Assembly: GCA_046757665.1 (NCBI GenBank)
Contig: JBHHYO010000054.1
Span: 1 to 17,881, forward strand
Reading direction: 5' to 3'
Source of the DNA: Nitrospinales bacterium
GTDB lineage: Bacteria; Nitrospinota; Nitrospinia; Nitrospinales; JAJDAT01
DNA length: 17,881 bases
The position numbers were made by a program. Shown one piece after another: positions 1 to 6,000 of the stretch. Position 1 is the first letter of the stretch, and each line of letters begins with the position of its first letter.

Positions 1-3000
1 CCGCAAAGCAAATCAAAAAGCCGGGTCGACATACTTTATTTTAATCCATGAGGAAGACAATGGCTCCCATAATAGACAGCCCGACCCCGACCAGTGTCAT
101 CAGGCTACCGCGGATGGTGCTGGGCGCCACCAGGTCGGATTTTCGCCTGCCGTAATGGGCCATGCGAACTTTCGGGTCCCTCAATCTTTCCTGGCGTTGC
201 TTTTCCCATTGGCTACAGAGATTCAACACCCAACCTCCGGCGAAAAAAAGCACGATCCCAAGCAGTTCTTGCTTGCTGACAAAATCCAATTCCATGATCC
301 CGTTTCCTCAAGAAGGCCGCGCCGAATTAATAAAATATAGCCCGCAAAGTATAGCAAAAATTCCCTATGGATACATCGCATCATCCGCCATTGCAAAGCC
401 CAGGAAACCCTTGCCCAGCGGAGATGTGTGGGTTAGAATTCAAATGGATTAGTGAATCGCGGAAATGCAAACCGGTTGGGATGTTATACCCATGAACGAA
501 ACCGACACATTGATCATCGATCAGGAAAAGGAGGGCTACCGATTTTCCATCGAGCCTTTCCTGCTGGCGGATTTCGTTTGCTTGCGGCGGGGAATGCGCC
601 TTCTCGATATCGGCACGGGATGCGGGGTCATTCCCCTGTTACTCAGCGTTCGGGAACCGGGTTTACAAATCACCGCCGTCGAGATTCAAAAACCGTTATA
701 CGACCGCGCGATGCAAAACGTTGCCGGCAACGGGCTAAAGCGAAAAATTGGGGTGCGCCACGGGGATTTTCTAAAGCTCGCGCAAACACTCGGCTCCTTC
801 GATCTCATCATCAGCAACCCACCCTACCGGAAAATTAACAGCGGCCGTCTGAATTCCGACAAGGGCAAGGCCATCGCCAGGCACGAGTTGACCTTGACTC
901 TGCCTGCATTGATCGCAAAAGCCGCTCCCTTGCTGGAGCGCGGCGGCAGGATGGTCCTGGCCTATCCGCCGCATCGTCTCGATGAAGTTTTAAGTGAATT
1001 GCGCCTTCGGCGTCTGTACCCCTGGCGGCTTCGCCTGGTGCACGGGTACCGGGGCGCGGCGACCAGGTTTTTTCTTGTCGAGGCGGTTAAGGATCAATTC
1101 GCCGAACGGGTCGAAAAAGAACCCTTTTACATTTATCATCCCGACGGCTCATACACCCGGCGGATGAAAAAACTTTATGCATCCCTTAATCATCCTTGCC
1201 GGTCCCACCGCCTCCGGGAAGAGCGAAACCGCGCTTGCGCTGGCTGAAACGCTCGACACTGAAATCATCAGCGCCGATTCCATGCAGATTTACAAATATT
1301 TCGATATTGGAACCGGCAAGCCCGGAAAAGACATCCAGGAAAAAATCGCCCATCATCTGATCGATATTCTGGAACCGCATGAGGAATTCAATGCCTTTGA
1401 GTTCAAAGCTCAAGCCATCAGACACGCAAACGACTTGATACGCCGGAAAAAGATTCCCCTGATAGTAGGCGGCACAGGGCTTTATCTGAAAGTGTTTTTG
1501 AAGGATTTTGAATGCGCCATCCAAGTGGCGCCCGATATCCGGGAAAGGGTTAAAGCCGAAATGAAAGAAAAAGGCGCTCGTGCGATGCACGCCGAACTGG
1601 CCAAAGTCGATCCGCTGTCCGCGGAAAGGATTTTGCCGACGGACCCGTTGCGGATCGAACGCGCCCTCTCGGTTTATTCGCAGACGGGCAAACCGCTATC
1701 GCAATTCCACGCCAATGAAAAGCGCGCAGAGCATAATTTCCAGCCATATTTCTTTTCTCTGGACTGGGACCGCGCCCGGCTTTATGAAAACATCGAAACC
1801 CGAGTCGAGTCGATGCTCCACCAAGGCTGGGCTGATGAGGTGAGAGGACTTTTGAACCGGGGTTTCGACAAAAACCTGAAACCCTTTCAAGGCATCGGCT
1901 ACGCGCAAATTGTAAAACATTTCGAGAAAGGAACGCCTTGGGAGCAAACTGTGCGCGAGATCAAACAGGAAACACGTCACTATGCCAAGCGCCAGATTAC
2001 CTGGTTCAAGAAAGTTTCCGACCGCATCGCCATCCCGCGAAAACCAGGGGACAGCCCCACCCTGCTCAGGGACCGAATTCTGTCGTATCTGCCCAGGGGG
2101 GTGGCGTTTATTCTGACGGCGATATTGTTTTTAGCTCCGCAGGCCGGCGTTCAGGCGGAAGAGGTTTCCCCGTACGATGCCGGTCTTCGTTCTTTCAAAC
2201 AGGCCGATTATGCCGCGGCCACCACCCACTTTCTCAAGGTACGCGGTTCCCCAACCGGCAAATGGGACAGCAAACGAGCCGTTTACCTTCTCGGCCTGAT
2301 CTCCACGGAAAAAGGCCGGTATGGCGAGGCCATAACCTATTTCAAAACCGCGTTGGACGAATTTTCGGAAATTGAGGACTACATTCGTTTTGAACTGGCG
2401 CGCGCCCACTACCGGTCCGGGCAATATCCGGCAACGCTGAAAGAAATCAATCGGCTGTTGAAGGCGTTTCCGACCCATCGCCATTTCCCCCAGGCCGAAC
2501 TCTGGCGCGCCGAAATTTTGCAACGTCAAGGCAAGACCGCCAAGGCGATCAACTTGCTGTCACGAGCGGTCAAACGCCTGTCGAAGATGCGGAGAGTTTT
2601 CAAATCCCATCTTCCCGAACTGATCTTCAAGCTGGCACAACTCCATGAAGAGCAACACAGCAAAGCGTACGAATGGTATCAGAAATTATATATTGAATAC
2701 CCCGACCATTCCTTGACCGCCAGGGCGGCGGCGAAAATGGATGAATTGAGCCGCCAACCCGGTTTTTCCCCAACACGGGTCGAAAAAAAATGGCGCCTAC
2801 AACGAATACGAAATTTATTGTCCAAGGCCGATTTTGAACAAGCGGTAAAGGAAATCGAGGATTTCAAGAAAGCGCACGCACCGGACCCCATACCGGAACA
2901 AATGTTGATTTATCTGGCAAGAGCCTATAAAGGACTGGGGAAGCGCGAGGAAGTTGACGGCGTCCTTGCGACTTTTCTCAAAACGTATCCCGGCCACCGG

Positions 3001-6000
3001 CGCACTCAGGAAGTTATGTTTCTGCTGGCCAGAAATTTATGGAATCTTAGCCGGGACCACCAGAGCACGGAAATGTTTCGCTCGTTGATCAAAATCAATC
3101 CGAAATCCCGATGGGCTATCAAGGGACGATTTTTTTTAGGCAAAGTTCACGAAGGCAATCTACAGTTCTCACAGGCACGCGAACAATACGGCTTTCTTGA
3201 AAAACACCACCGCAAAAATGAATACGGGCAAAGAGCCGCCTGGCGTCTTGGCTGGCTGGACTATCGGGAAAAGCGCTACGAAACCGCCGTGGAACGGTTC
3301 AAACAAAACATCCACAACCTGCCGAACGGCGAGCTTATGGACGCAAACCTGTTTTGGATGGCCAAGGCTTTTGCAAAAGCAGGACAGACAGAGAAAGCCG
3401 GGAAAACCTATCGGGAGTTGTATGCCCGGTTCCCCTACACCTATTACGGTATGCGGGCAAGGAAAAAACTGAAAATCGGTGAATCCCGATCGGCAGGCCA
3501 AGGGATCAAATCTAAAAATATAATTACGCGAACTTCTTTCACCGAAGCGGCAAACACCGCCCCACCGCTCCGAGTCCGCCTTTCCGGGAAAGTGAAACGG
3601 CAACTTGTGCGCGCCAGGGAAATGATCCTCATGGGACTCTCCGACAATGCCAGGTTTGAAATTCAACAATTTGAAAGCAAGGTGAAAAAGAATTACTCCG
3701 GAACCATGTGGATTGCGGAATTGTACTATAACACCGAATCCTTTCCGGAGGCCTACCGGCTTTTGGAGCTGTTTAAAAATTTCAAAACCAAGGCGCGGGA
3801 AAAAGAACTTCCGCTCCGGTTCTGGAAACTTTTCTATCCCCCTGCGTATGCCAGCCACATCGAGACTCACGCGGCCGCCTTGCAAGTCGACCCATGGCTG
3901 ACCAAGAGCATCATCCGCCAGGAAAGTTTGTTCGACAAACGATCCTTATCCGGAGCCGGCGCCCGAGGGCTCATGCAAATCATGCCGGAAACCGGGCAAA
4001 GGCTTTTTTCCGCCATTATGGACAACCGGCAAACATTTCAGGCCGACGATTTGTTCGACCCGGAGCTGAATATCCATCTGGGAATAAAATACCTGAAGGA
4101 ACTGAAAGAAAAATATTCCGGCAATCGGATTCGGATTCTGATCTGTTACAATGCCGGCCCGGAAGTTTTGGAAAGCTGGCTCAAGCGATTCCAGGATGTG
4201 CGGGACCCTGACGTTTTCATCGAATTGATTCCCTATCCGGAAACCAGAAACTTCGTCAAGCGGGTGTTGCGAAACTATGGAGTTTACCGGGCTCTTTACG
4301 CTCACTCCATGTGATTTTCGACATTGCCGTCAAGGGCGCGACCCTGCGTACCCGGCAAAATCAAAAAAATAATTGGGATTAAAATTCCCAGCGTTTATAA
4401 TAAAAGGGTTTTCTCAACCAAGGAGCGCCGTGAAATCCCCTGTCGTTTTGCGAAAAATAAAGACCTATGACCCGGACGCAATCGAATCGTTCGTACGGGA
4501 CACCGTTTCCTCTTTGGGCGAGGGCAAGCCTATCTTTCAGCCGGGCCAACGGGTTCTGTTGAAACCGAACCTGCTCCGCGGCGCTTCGCCAGACCGATGC
4601 GTAACGACCCACCCGGCGGTCGTGGAAGCAGTTTGCCGGGTGCTCCGGGACAGCGGCGTAAGCCGGATTAACTTGAGCGACAGTCCGGCGATGGGAACCC
4701 TGAAACATGCGGCACACGAAGCCGGTTACGCTCCGCTGGCAAAACGATATGGGCTACATATAATCGCCTTGTCCAACCCCGTGCCGCTGGATACGGAGGG
4801 AATTCCTCATCTGAAGATTTCTGGAGACTTGCGGCAATACGACCGAATCGTCAACCTGCCGAAATTCAAATCGCACCGGCAGATGACCCTCACCCTGGGC
4901 ATCAAGAACCTTTTCGGCTGTGTCATCGGCAAACGCAAACCCGTCCTGCATTGCCTGGTAAAAAATGATAAAATCAAGTTTGGAAGGATGCTGGTGGACA
5001 TCGCCCGACACGTTAATCCCTGTCTGACCCTGGTCGACGGAATTTGGGCGATGCAGGGCAACGGTCCCATAAACGGCACGCCCTATTCCCTGGGTTTGAT
5101 GGCAGGCGGACGGGACTTAACCGCCATGGAAAGAATACTGGCGGATATCGTGAACGTCCCTCTAAACCGGGTCTATGCACTCGAAGCGGCCCGGCAAAAG
5201 AAATTCGGCCGTTACGATCTTGAGCAAATTGAAACGCAGGGCGAACGCGATTGGCAGGCTCTGCGAGTCACCGATTTTCAGCTGGCCGATTTTGAATTGG
5301 CTATTTCATTTAACCCCGTGCACCTGTTCAAATCCTTCGCCAAACATCTTTATGAAATCGGTTGGAAGGAAAAATTGACGGGGAAAATTTAAATCGCAAG
5401 AATTCACGTGAGCCGGTTCAACGCAAGTTTGGTTGCCCTCATTCCGGCCAACCCTTGCAAAAGAGCCGCGGTTCTCTACTTTTGATCGGTCAAAAAATGG
5501 AGAAAGTTCACGAAACTCAAGCAAAAAAAATCGACACCGACTTGTGGGTGGAACGATATGGGGACCAGATGTATCGTTACACTCTTTTGCGGGTCAAGTA
5601 TCCGGAATCGGCGGAGGAGATCGTTCAGGAAACTTTTTTGGCGGCCTACAAATCCCGGAACTCCTTTGCCGGAAAAGCGTCGGAAAAAAGCTGGCTATTT
5701 GGGATACTAAAGCATAAGATAATGGATCATTTTCGAGAACTAAAGAAGCATCAGATTTTCGATTTGATTCAGGAGGACGACCCGGACCCTTATGAGGATG
5801 CCTACGATCATAAAGGCAACCGGAAGAACCCGCCAAGAAATTGGGGAATTAATCCGGAAAAGGCGGCGGAGAATAAACAATTGTTGCGTGCGCTGGGCCA
5901 GTGCGTCGAAGAGCTTCCCGACAAATTTCGGCGGCTTTTTATTTTAAAGGAGGTGGATGGGTACAGTTCCGAATACATTTGTAAGGAACTGGACATTCAG

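Follow-up and report, generated by a model that had tools for sequence, protein, structure and literature searches.

A single open reading frame of a Nitrospinales bacterium joins a complete MiaA tRNA dimethylallyltransferase to a Slt70-like lytic transglycosylase through a signal-peptide-like segment, and this fusion, which has a single origin, is conserved across the order. In the cells of this order, the only tRNA-modifying MiaA is thus translated in one piece with an enzyme that cuts the cell wall and whose predicted site lies outside the inner membrane. The frame (1177..4314, forward strand; 1045 aa, ATG start, stop codon included in the coordinates) lies in a stretch of 17,881 nucleotides hereafter called the window. 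Our preferred explanation, to which we give a probability of roughly 0.55, is that the internal segment serves as the signal peptide of an Slt that would be exported and then cut free by signal peptidase I. Our literature search found no paper on a MiaA-Slt fusion.

Two apparently intact enzymes in one frame

The stop-to-stop frame opens only three codons 5' of the ATG at 1177, and the encoded chain consists of MiaA (residues 1-303), a hydrophobic segment (308-320), an α-superhelix (332-765) and an SLT/GH23 domain (896-1007). Pfam searches returned IPPT at 37-279 (E 7.6e-80) and SLT at 896-1007 (E 4e-26), and placed matches to TPR families and YfiO within the range 366-760. The genome-wide survey's note had read the frame as a fusion of MiaA with a TPR/SLT protein; the single open frame together with the Pfam and NCBIfam domains confirms that the fusion is genuine and in frame and that its MiaA is complete. 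The Atlas clusters that it cited were also reproduced (SLT+IPPT+TPR, 57 members; IPPT+TPR, 243 members), the latter being commonest in Nitrospinota.

The MiaA domain (1177..2085, forward strand) is complete to its C-terminal helix according to TIGR00174, Pfam IPPT, phmmer and Foldseek. Curated cut-offs are passed over nearly the full length of the models: TIGR00174 covers residues 4-282 with 290 bits (cut-off 148.65; model positions 1-279 of 288), and PF01715 scores 268.5 bits (cut-off 23.6; model positions 1-242 of 243). The solved MiaAs 3d3q, 2qgn and 2zm5 were matched by phmmer at 173-191 bits, and Foldseek aligned the domain with chain A of 2zm5, the E. coli MiaA-tRNA complex, over 308 columns (E 2.8e-16, TM(target) 0.78), which identifies the MiaA fold with its tRNA-clamping insertion domain. 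In MiaA, the P-loop serves the DMAPP pyrophosphate and the D-S motif holds the catalytic Asp, and both motifs are present in the window protein. The P-loop GPTASGKS (residues 9-16; 1201..1224, forward strand) follows the GPTASGK[ST] motif of three solved bacterial MiaAs. Across an alignment of 31 fusions its G9, P10, T11 and K15 are invariant, while G14, unchanged in the window protein, is K, E or R in six. The A-D-S-x-Q motif, represented here by A33-D34-S35 with D34 invariant, and many other MiaA positions are likewise invariant. With these motifs and the matching fold, the MiaA domain looks intact.

This domain is also the only one of its kind. PF01715 has one match in the genome of the window, as had been noted before. 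Of 61 order genomes, 57 have exactly one, in each case within the fusion frame, and the other four have neither a match nor a fusion. No free-standing MiaA was found in any of the 57 order genomes with an IPPT match. MiaB, which acts on and needs i6A, is encoded in the same genome as the window (477.8 bits, cut-off 355.3). Together with the single IPPT gene, this suggests indirectly that the domain makes i6A37 on tRNA.

Downstream of the junction, an all-α superhelical, TPR-like domain (residues 332-765; 2170..3471, forward strand) is indicated by Pfam TPR/YfiO, Foldseek and an AF2 model in which its pLDDT is mostly 85-97. It is followed by a probably disordered linker predicted with low confidence (768-798; 3478..3570, forward strand; pLDDT <50), and then by linker-domain helices and the GH23/SLT catalytic domain (804-1041; 3586..4299, forward strand), supported by Pfam SLT, motifs and phmmer. 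The SLT domain itself (3862-4197, forward strand) scores 91.3 bits against PF01464 (cut-off 21.3), one of three PF01464 matches in the genome. The putative catalytic Glu is E916 (3922-3924, forward strand) in a Q915-E916-S917 motif that is invariant in the 31 fusions and in a set of 18 fused and stand-alone orthologues; the G-x-M-Q-x-M-P motif (G931 to P937, here G-L-M-Q) and Y-N-A-G-P are invariant in the 31 fusions as well. Given these motifs and the fold match, the Slt part looks catalytically intact.

The order of domains in the AF2 model and in Foldseek, a superhelical α N-domain followed by a catalytic C-domain, is that of the Slt70 class, and the superhelix corresponds to the superhelical domain at the N-terminus of these enzymes. 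Foldseek aligned 671-701 columns overall with P. aeruginosa Slt and E. coli Slt70, and 671-689 columns with 6fcq, 5ohu and 1qte (probability 1.00, TM(target) 0.48-0.53). The Slt70 equivalog model NF008631 scores 101.2 bits against a cut-off of 536 and aligns with the catalytic domain only; the Slt part is hence a Slt70-class member by architecture and not a Slt70 equivalog.

Distribution and origin of the fusion

We surveyed 120 genomes of the phylum, namely 102 of the order (including that of the window, G000) and 18 of families f5-f9. A full-length open fusion frame is present in 77 of the 102 order genomes: 74 single-piece matches, two genomes with two pieces in one frame (G067 and G042), and G072, which had been flagged for one TGA and whose locus L049 holds an open 1045-aa frame. 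In 19 others the fusion is truncated at contig ends or, in the case of G096, broken by a frame change around residue 125; 17 of these 19 keep the junction in one frame, among them G105, whose frame passes the hydrophobic segment to the contig end. The remaining six (G016, G056, G058, G059, G079 and G083) gave no match. None of the 102 order genomes has separate miaA and slt genes.

Outside the order, none of the 18 genomes of f5-f9 carries the fusion. Their stand-alone frames encode MiaAs of 310-362 aa and Slts of 743-825 aa, and in eight genomes (G108, G111, G112-115, G117 and G118) miaA and slt are adjacent on the same strand, overlapping in seven of the eight. The larger sample therefore agrees with what had been proposed from fewer genomes, namely that the fusion is order-wide and that the genes are separate and often adjacent in other Nitrospinota families; within the 120 genomes searched, the fusion does mark this order.

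An assembly, frameshift or gene-calling error that joined two genes is effectively refuted. The genomes are mostly metagenome-assembled and G096 does show a frame change, albeit inside the MiaA domain, but the frame is open in 77 independent assemblies whose proteins share 39-46% identity with the window protein, despite about 55-60% sequence divergence. These include single-contig genomes (G002, G005, G013, G018, G024, G025, G026, G037 and G054), and more than 100 proteins of the fusion type, from several sources, are found in public databases.

In the tree, the Slt parts of all 31 fusions group in a single clade (SH-aLRT 100), and the three Nitrospinota groups form a polytomy. Adjacency followed by fusion is consistent with this topology, though not singled out by it. 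Because miaA and slt overlap in sister families, the origin from neighbouring genes that had been suggested is the most plausible one: in f8 the TAA of miaA and the ATG of slt have one base in common (TAATG), and six f9 genomes have the slt ATG 8-17 nt ahead of the miaA stop, with the slt start and its AGGA inside the end of miaA. The fusion is a real, ancient and order-wide feature that most likely arose through loss of the stop codon between overlapping, translationally coupled miaA and slt.

The overlap at the other end of the frame involves a co-directional TrmN-like methyltransferase gene with an MTS Pfam match (465..1247, forward strand), the last 71 nt of which overlap the start of the fusion ORF. 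Its best NCBIfam match, TrmN, reaches 68.8 bits, far below the cut-off of 350. The gene is found upstream of the fusion in 28 of 29 order loci, with one more having just a 47-residue match, and it usually ends about 68 nt inside the fusion ORF.

The junction and the fate of the chain

Sec signal peptides have a positive n-region, an h-region of about 10-15 residues and small residues at -3/-1, while the hydrophobic span of a type II signal-anchor measures about 19 residues or more. The junction of the window protein (residues 304-327; 2086..2157, forward strand) shows the former anatomy by these general thresholds: K/R on its N side, an h-region of 13 residues (308-320; 2098-2136, forward strand) that is the longest stretch free of charged and polar residues, then P321 and a c-region with V-Q-A at its end, after which a signal peptidase I site is predicted (A327/E328, V-Q-A/E-E; 2157/2158, forward strand). 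A single transmembrane segment at 301-319 had been reported earlier. There is indeed one hydrophobic segment only, no second 19-residue window of the fusion protein reaching a Kyte-Doolittle mean of at least 1.6, but its bounds are 308-320.

The same anatomy is conserved in the 31 fusions, in a MAFFT alignment that was not fitted to the pattern. The 13 columns of the h-region contain no charged residue, and the uncharged run has a median of 15 residues, with at most 17 in 28 of the 31 and 20-23 in the other three. Mean K+R is 2.87 in the N flank versus 1.00 in the C flank (N > C in 27/31). Pro occupies the column of residue 322, near -6, in 77% of sequences; small residues fill position -3 in 84% and position -1 in 93% (27/29; at -1 one sequence has T and two others are misaligned), with 11 residue types at the intervening position -2, against a baseline of 24% small residues in the whole alignment, all read from columns of related, non-independent sequences. 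Acidic residues follow the site. Small residues at -3/-1 could also be selected for reasons besides cleavage.

In the stand-alone orthologues of f5-f9, all 11 frames (including L043, whose start codon is not settled) have a near-N-terminal hydrophobic stretch and a small-x-small site, usually followed by D/E, and the hydrophobic segment of the fusions aligns in position with this N-terminal Sec signal peptide. The genome of the window also encodes signal peptidase I (186 bits, cut-off 47). Signal peptides are N-terminal by definition, which speaks against such a reading here: a complete MiaA comes before the segment, which begins at residue 304, and 307 residues of folded domain precede the h-region. 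From its sequence, the segment would thus work like a signal peptide at most, and is not a canonical one.

The survey's note had regarded MiaA as the cytoplasmic head of a membrane-anchored lytic transglycosylase, that is, a permanently bitopic enzyme with an uncleaved signal anchor, tethering the sole MiaA at the inner membrane face to a periplasmic, membrane-bound lytic transglycosylase. We consider this possible yet rather doubtful. One frame with one hydrophobic segment and a positive-inside bias would suit it; the spacer of only 3-5 residues between the MiaA C-terminal helix and the h-region, with P306 conserved in 90%, looks like a tight, selected junction; the fusion is kept order-wide at about 40% identity, as though the link mattered; and the three longest uncharged runs could cross a membrane. 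However, the h-run is too short for a type II signal-anchor in 28 of the 31 fusions and has not grown to anchor length, it is followed directly, among variable adjoining columns, by a conserved helix-breaking Pro and small-x-small site, an equal anatomy serves as N-terminal signal peptide in the stand-alone orthologues, and the C-terminal 720 residues align from end to end with the soluble Slt class. Thus, the fusion, the sole IPPT domain, the conservation and the origin from neighbours stand, whereas permanent membrane anchoring is not supported as stated.

A second translation start before the hydrophobic segment would yield a normal pre-Slt and leave the full-length chain minor or irrelevant. 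In one genus (L010, L012, L021, L022 and L024), an in-frame ATG does lie 11-12 codons ahead of the h-region, accompanied by AAGGA or AGGA at a spacing of 10 nt, and the slt start embedded in miaA of the ancestor-like f9 genes offers a precedent. But no start codon is conserved among the 31 fusions, three of them lack any in-frame ATG, GTG or TTG from -30 to +4 codons around the h-region, and the window has only a GTG (V309), abutted by AGGGGG without spacer and with no charged n-region downstream; internal initiation is very unlikely.

A processed precursor is, as far as the sequences indicate, at least as likely as a permanent anchor because of the signal-peptide position, the short h-run, the signal-peptidase-I-type site and the whole-length match to the soluble Slt70 class. 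In such a precursor, the internal junction would be Slt's own Sec signal peptide, formerly N-terminal. The MiaA domain (1-303) would be translated, fold in the cytoplasm and make i6A37 on tRNA; the emerging h-region (308-320) would insert into SecYEG with its N-terminal side cytoplasmic; the superhelix and GH23 part, about 720 residues, would be translocated to the periplasm; and signal peptidase I would most likely cleave after A327. A soluble periplasmic Slt would then be released, and MiaA would keep a short hydrophobic tail at its C-terminus that stays associated with the membrane or is trimmed later. We infer this topology, the cleavage and the fate of the tail from the sequences.

It is unlikely, in our estimate, that the covalent link is itself functional, with the sole MiaA delivered to and held at the Sec/inner-membrane site of Slt export. 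The tRNA i6A37 modification draws on the DMAPP/isoprenoid pool that also feeds the undecaprenyl carrier of wall synthesis. If the link were functional, in a stable bitopic two-enzyme protein or in a precursor with controlled cleavage, i6A37 modification and wall turnover would be produced at a constant 1:1 ratio, and each may regulate the other from its own side of the membrane. Such a link would couple translation capacity to wall remodelling, from cytoplasm to periplasm, in a new way.

Comparison with known systems

Bacterial MiaAs (E. coli 2zm5/3foz, S. epidermidis 3d3q, B. halodurans 2qgn/3exa) match residues 1-303 over their full length. They are free cytoplasmic proteins of about 310-340 aa, whereas the C-terminal helix of the fusion MiaA continues into a hydrophobic segment and 720 further residues.

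With the Slt70-class GH23 enzymes (E. coli Slt70 1qsa/1qte, P. aeruginosa Slt 5ohu/6fcq, Neisseria LtgA 5mpq/5o29), the fusion has in common the architecture of a superhelical N-domain and a C-terminal SLT domain (phmmer of the fusion protein against chains of this class, E about 1e-19), but identity is only 16-19% with a TM of about 0.5, and the export signal, N-terminal in these enzymes, is internal in the fusion, behind a cytoplasmic enzyme. The Borrelia BB0259-type flagellar assembly lytic transglycosylase family (NF047373) ranks second among all NCBIfam matches and first for the C-terminal third (residues 730-1042 against model positions 407-693 of 705), its 172.5 bits falling below the family's 234-bit cut-off; no flagellar genes were seen within the window.

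Precursor polyproteins cut at an internal signal sequence are exemplified by the cytochrome b/c1 precursor FbcH of Bradyrhizobium. There, as we propose for the fusion, one chain with an internal signal-peptide-like segment is cut by signal peptidase into two proteins. The two parts of FbcH belong to one membrane complex, whereas those of the fusion are unrelated enzymes that would act in different compartments after a predicted cleavage.

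Domain architecture and conservation of the fusion

The tRNA-modifying enzyme MiaA and the lytic transglycosylase Slt are each textbook proteins, and in Nitrospinales, an order of marine nitrite oxidisers, we find both encoded by a single frame (1177–4314, plus strand) that opens with ATG and runs for 1045 aa. Pfam assigns residues 37–279 to the MiaA family IPPT (PF01715; 7.6e-80) and residues 896–1007 to the GH23 catalytic domain SLT (PF01464; 4e-26), with matches to several TPR families and to YfiO between residues 366 and 760. The NCBIfam model for miaA, TIGR00174, covers residues 4–282 with 290 bits against a cut-off of 148.65, while the matches of the C-terminal third stay below threshold, at 172.5 versus 234 bits for the Borrelia BB0259-type lytic transglycosylase and 101 bits for Slt70, whose cut-off is 536 bits.

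The MiaA part (residues 1–303) matches bacterial MiaAs of known structure along its full length (173–191 bits), sharing the GPTASGK[ST] loop. In an AlphaFold2 model for which 31 fusions served as input (mean pLDDT 83), this part superposes on the tRNA-bound MiaA of E. coli with a TM score of 0.78. Residues 332–1041 of the model align over 671–701 columns with the Slt of P. aeruginosa and the Slt70 of E. coli (probability 1.00, TM about 0.5, 16–19% identity), which identifies the ‘TPR/YfiO’ repeats as the superhelix of an enzyme of the Slt70 class. Invariant in the Slt part are Q915-E916-S917, the G-x-M-Q-x-M-P motif running from G931 to P937, and Y-N-A-G-P. The source genome (2.97 Mb in 160 contigs, 97.6% complete) holds three PF01464 matches and a single PF01715 match, the fusion itself; it also encodes MiaB, which acts on i6A, above its cut-off, and this argues that MiaA activity is both needed and present.

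The whole fusion protein was searched against 120 genomes of the phylum, of which 102, including the source genome, represent the four families of the order. An uninterrupted frame from residue 1 to about 1043 was found in 77 of the 102, as a single-piece match in 74; in G067 and G042 the match is split into two pieces that share one frame within each genome, and in G072 one TGA was flagged, yet the corresponding locus (L049) has an open frame of 1045 aa. In 19 further genomes the fusion is broken, by a shift of frame in G096 and otherwise where a contig ends; the junction is nevertheless intact in one frame in 17 of these, including G105, where the frame passes through the hydrophobic segment up to the contig end. 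Six order genomes, 57–92% complete, returned no fusion match, and separate miaA and slt genes were found in none of the 102. Since relatives’ fusions are only 39–46% identical to the protein studied here, the open frame has been retained across a long divergence.

Among 61 order genomes searched with PF01715, exactly one match was obtained in 57, each time within the fusion frame, and none in the remaining four, which lack the fusion as well. When the junction region, residues 200–460, served as a database query, 130 proteins were returned, and both PF01715 and PF01464 are present in almost all of the 120 matches listed, short fragments excepted. Both Atlas clusters quoted by the genome-wide survey’s note (IPPT+TPR+SLT and IPPT+TPR) were reproduced. 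The analysis thus establishes the fusion, its conservation, its status as sole MiaA, and motifs and folds that are intact in each enzyme.

Two genomes deviate from the general pattern. In G096 (contig C6, locus L048; genome 59% complete) the frame shifts near residue 125, within the MiaA domain; either the gene is a pseudogene or the assembly is wrong there. G071, listed with 5% contamination, has two full-length copies, on contigs C39 and C12, and may be a mixed bin.

The junction and the predicted fate of the chain

A hydropathy scan of the fusion revealed only one hydrophobic segment: all high-scoring 19-residue windows begin at residues 301–309, and the longest stretch with neither charged nor polar residues is 308–320. 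It lies immediately behind the last MiaA helix, at the same place as the signal peptide of stand-alone Slts. Each of the 11 stand-alone Slt frames examined from the other Nitrospinota families has a hydrophobic stretch near its N-terminus, behind which come a small-x-small site and, in most cases, an acidic residue. Ten of them also have a plausible start codon ahead of the stretch, which makes it a Sec signal peptide of the ordinary kind, charged n-region included; the eleventh is L043, with an uncertain start codon.

Junction columns were read from a MAFFT alignment of the 31 fusions, fitted to no pattern. Proline occupies residue 306 in 90% of sequences and residue 322 in 77%, and the 13 hydrophobic columns between 308 and 320 contain no charged residue. 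Small residues account for 84% at residue 325 (position –3) and for 93% (27/29), mostly alanine, at residue 327 (position –1), against a background of 24% across the whole fusion alignment, while the intervening residue 326 (position –2) takes 11 residue types; past residue 327, acidic residues are frequent. The pattern is retained while its actual residues vary freely. The uncharged run has a median length of 15 residues (range 11–23). Over flanks of 15 residues each, lysine plus arginine average 2.87 on its N-terminal side and 1.00 on its C-terminal side, the N-terminal flank being the richer in 27 of 31 fusions. Of the source genome’s two other SLT genes, considered for calibrating local signal peptides, one locus was truncated and the other has a short h-region ahead of L-E-A↓K, too small a basis for calibration.

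The criteria that tell a cleavable signal peptide from a signal anchor of about 20 residues are textbook knowledge. Judged by them from sequence, the junction has the anatomy of a cleavable signal peptide whose N-terminal side would be cytoplasmic; this anatomy and the orientation bias of the flanking charges are established features of the alignment. The genome-wide survey’s note had read the segment as the membrane anchor of the transglycosylase, whereas we read it as a probable cleavable signal.

We therefore favour, with a probability of about 0.55, a precursor that is exported by Sec via an internal signal. MiaA would fold in the cytoplasm, the internal signal would then engage Sec with its N-terminal side remaining cytoplasmic, the Slt part would be translocated, and signal peptidase I, which the source genome encodes, would cut after A327. 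The predicted products are a soluble periplasmic Slt and a MiaA bearing a short hydrophobic tail. A fusion that stays uncleaved as a bitopic protein is a less probable outcome that still deserves serious consideration; against it stands a junction unlike an anchor of roughly 20 residues, with an uncharged run of at most 17 residues in 28 of the 31 fusions.

Separate production of Slt from an internal translation start is improbable. In-frame ATG, GTG and TTG codons were listed between codons –30 and +4 relative to the start of the h-region, and no start codon is conserved among the 31 fusions, three of which have none in this range. The sole candidate in the window is a GTG at V309 (2101–2103), which AGGGGG abuts with no spacer. 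In one genus (5 loci), however, an ATG is present at 10 nt from an AAGGA or AGGA, and an internal start may be used there. That the fusion is an artefact has a negligible probability. Beyond the cleaved precursor as favoured mechanism, the miaA-slt link could equally be a fixed, harmless accident rather than have a function beyond co-expression.

The P-loop, gene annotation and neighbouring genes

The stop-to-stop frame of the fusion begins just 3 codons 5′ of the ATG at 1177, so no alternative start could take in the P-loop (residues 9–16). The N-terminus encoding it is conserved in 31/31 fusions, but the database copy of the protein (P0002) has 1010 instead of 1045 aa, matching a start at M36 that would drop the P-loop; the region concerned is 1177–1284 (plus strand). 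Relatives with 997 and 1032 aa also occur in pairs, with the identical 35-residue gap. The fusion start overlaps, in a different frame, the 3′ end of the upstream gene (68–71 nt; 1177–1247 in the window), an overlap that gene callers probably shunned, hence the start at M36. Annotation is affected accordingly: named database matches, from Nitrospinae, Nitrospinales, Nitrospinaceae or Nitrospina, are called ‘tRNA dimethylallyltransferase MiaA’, so that proteins of 1000 aa carry the plain name MiaA, some of the gene calls being without the P-loop.

The second glycine of the P-loop (GPTxSGKS; G14, 1216–1218) gives way to K, E or R in 6/31 fusions (loci L008, L015, L017, L027, L034 and L049), which fall into at least four separate lineages judged from the Slt tree. 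In the genomes G039, G029, G008, G012 and G031, which carry such replacements, the fusion remains the sole IPPT match.

The upstream gene (465–1247, plus strand) encodes a small-domain methyltransferase whose best NCBIfam match, the tRNA m6A37 methyltransferase TrmN, reaches 68.8 bits, far below the cut-off of 350. Of 29 order loci, 28 have this gene ahead of the fusion and the other shows a 47-residue match only; the two genes may form an operon of two tRNA position-37 enzymes. On the 3′ side lies a DUF362 gene resembling the Npun_F2552 family (4373–5392, plus strand; 230 bits versus a cut-off of 500), a homologue of which adjoins the fusion in 12 of 37 loci (29 from the order and 8 from other families), all 12 belonging to the order. 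Domain matches further identify a TIGR02943-like sigma factor of the ECF type with a zf-HC2 anti-sigma protein behind it (5362–6380, plus strand); within 7430–12176, two minus-strand histidine kinases (PAS-GAF-HisKA-HATPase, 551 aa; dCache-HAMP-HisKA-HATPase, 796 aa) and a plus-strand stand-alone receiver protein; and, at 16527–17258 (plus strand), a toxin gene resembling Gp49/HigB ahead of an HTH_3 gene, arranged as in a toxin-antitoxin pair of the HigBA type. Two long overlapping minus-strand ORFs, of 392 aa (12312–13490) and 263 aa (13132–13923), have no Pfam match, and the former has none in NCBIfam.

Origin and relation to known proteins

The fusion was absent from all 18 genomes of the other Nitrospinota families (f5–f9), where separate genes encode MiaA frames of 310–362 aa and Slt frames of 743–825 aa. 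In 8 of these 18 (G108 of f7, G111 of f8 and six f9 genomes) miaA and slt are adjacent on the same strand: a gap of about 780 nt separates them in f7, one base is common to the miaA stop and the slt start in f8 (TAATG), and in the f9 genomes the slt ATG, preceded by AGGA, lies 8–17 nt 5′ of the miaA stop. Such an overlapping pair would yield the fusion upon stop loss or a small frame change. In a maximum-likelihood tree of Slt parts (31 from fusions, 8 from adjacent and 3 from separate genes, with 9 sequences of other phyla as outgroup), the fusions form one clade (SH-aLRT 100) and all Nitrospinota sequences group together (SH-aLRT 97); the fused, adjacent and separate groups form a polytomy, so that the direction of change is not fixed by the tree.

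A MiaA HMM run against 80 Slt-like loci from contigs of other genomes matched only two, both Nitrospinales fusions; miaA was absent from the fetched flanks (up to 4 kb, some shorter) of the other 78, many of which match the catalytic domain only and are non-orthologues. The miaA-slt linkage thus seems, tentatively, to be confined to this phylum.

No description of a MiaA-Slt fusion was found in the open-access PMC and bioRxiv literature, nor a usable, citable precedent for a polyprotein with an internal signal peptide. In one paper MiaA appears as a Tn-seq hit in Agrobacterium, with no bearing on a fusion (PMC10838918), and another treats hfq/miaA synteny and FlgV rather than the present protein (PMC11607428). 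Both domain families are already known, and the proteins are public under the automatic name MiaA; as far as searched, one chain joining a cytoplasmic tRNA-modifying enzyme with an exported cell-wall hydrolase is undescribed. This chain has persisted through the order’s whole history as its only MiaA. If it is uncleaved, i6A37 formation would take place wholly at the membrane, by an enzyme tethered to a peptidoglycan lytic enzyme. If it is cleaved, it would represent a clean natural bacterial two-compartment polyprotein, resolved by signal peptidase, and also a case of fixed stop-codon loss between overlapping genes.
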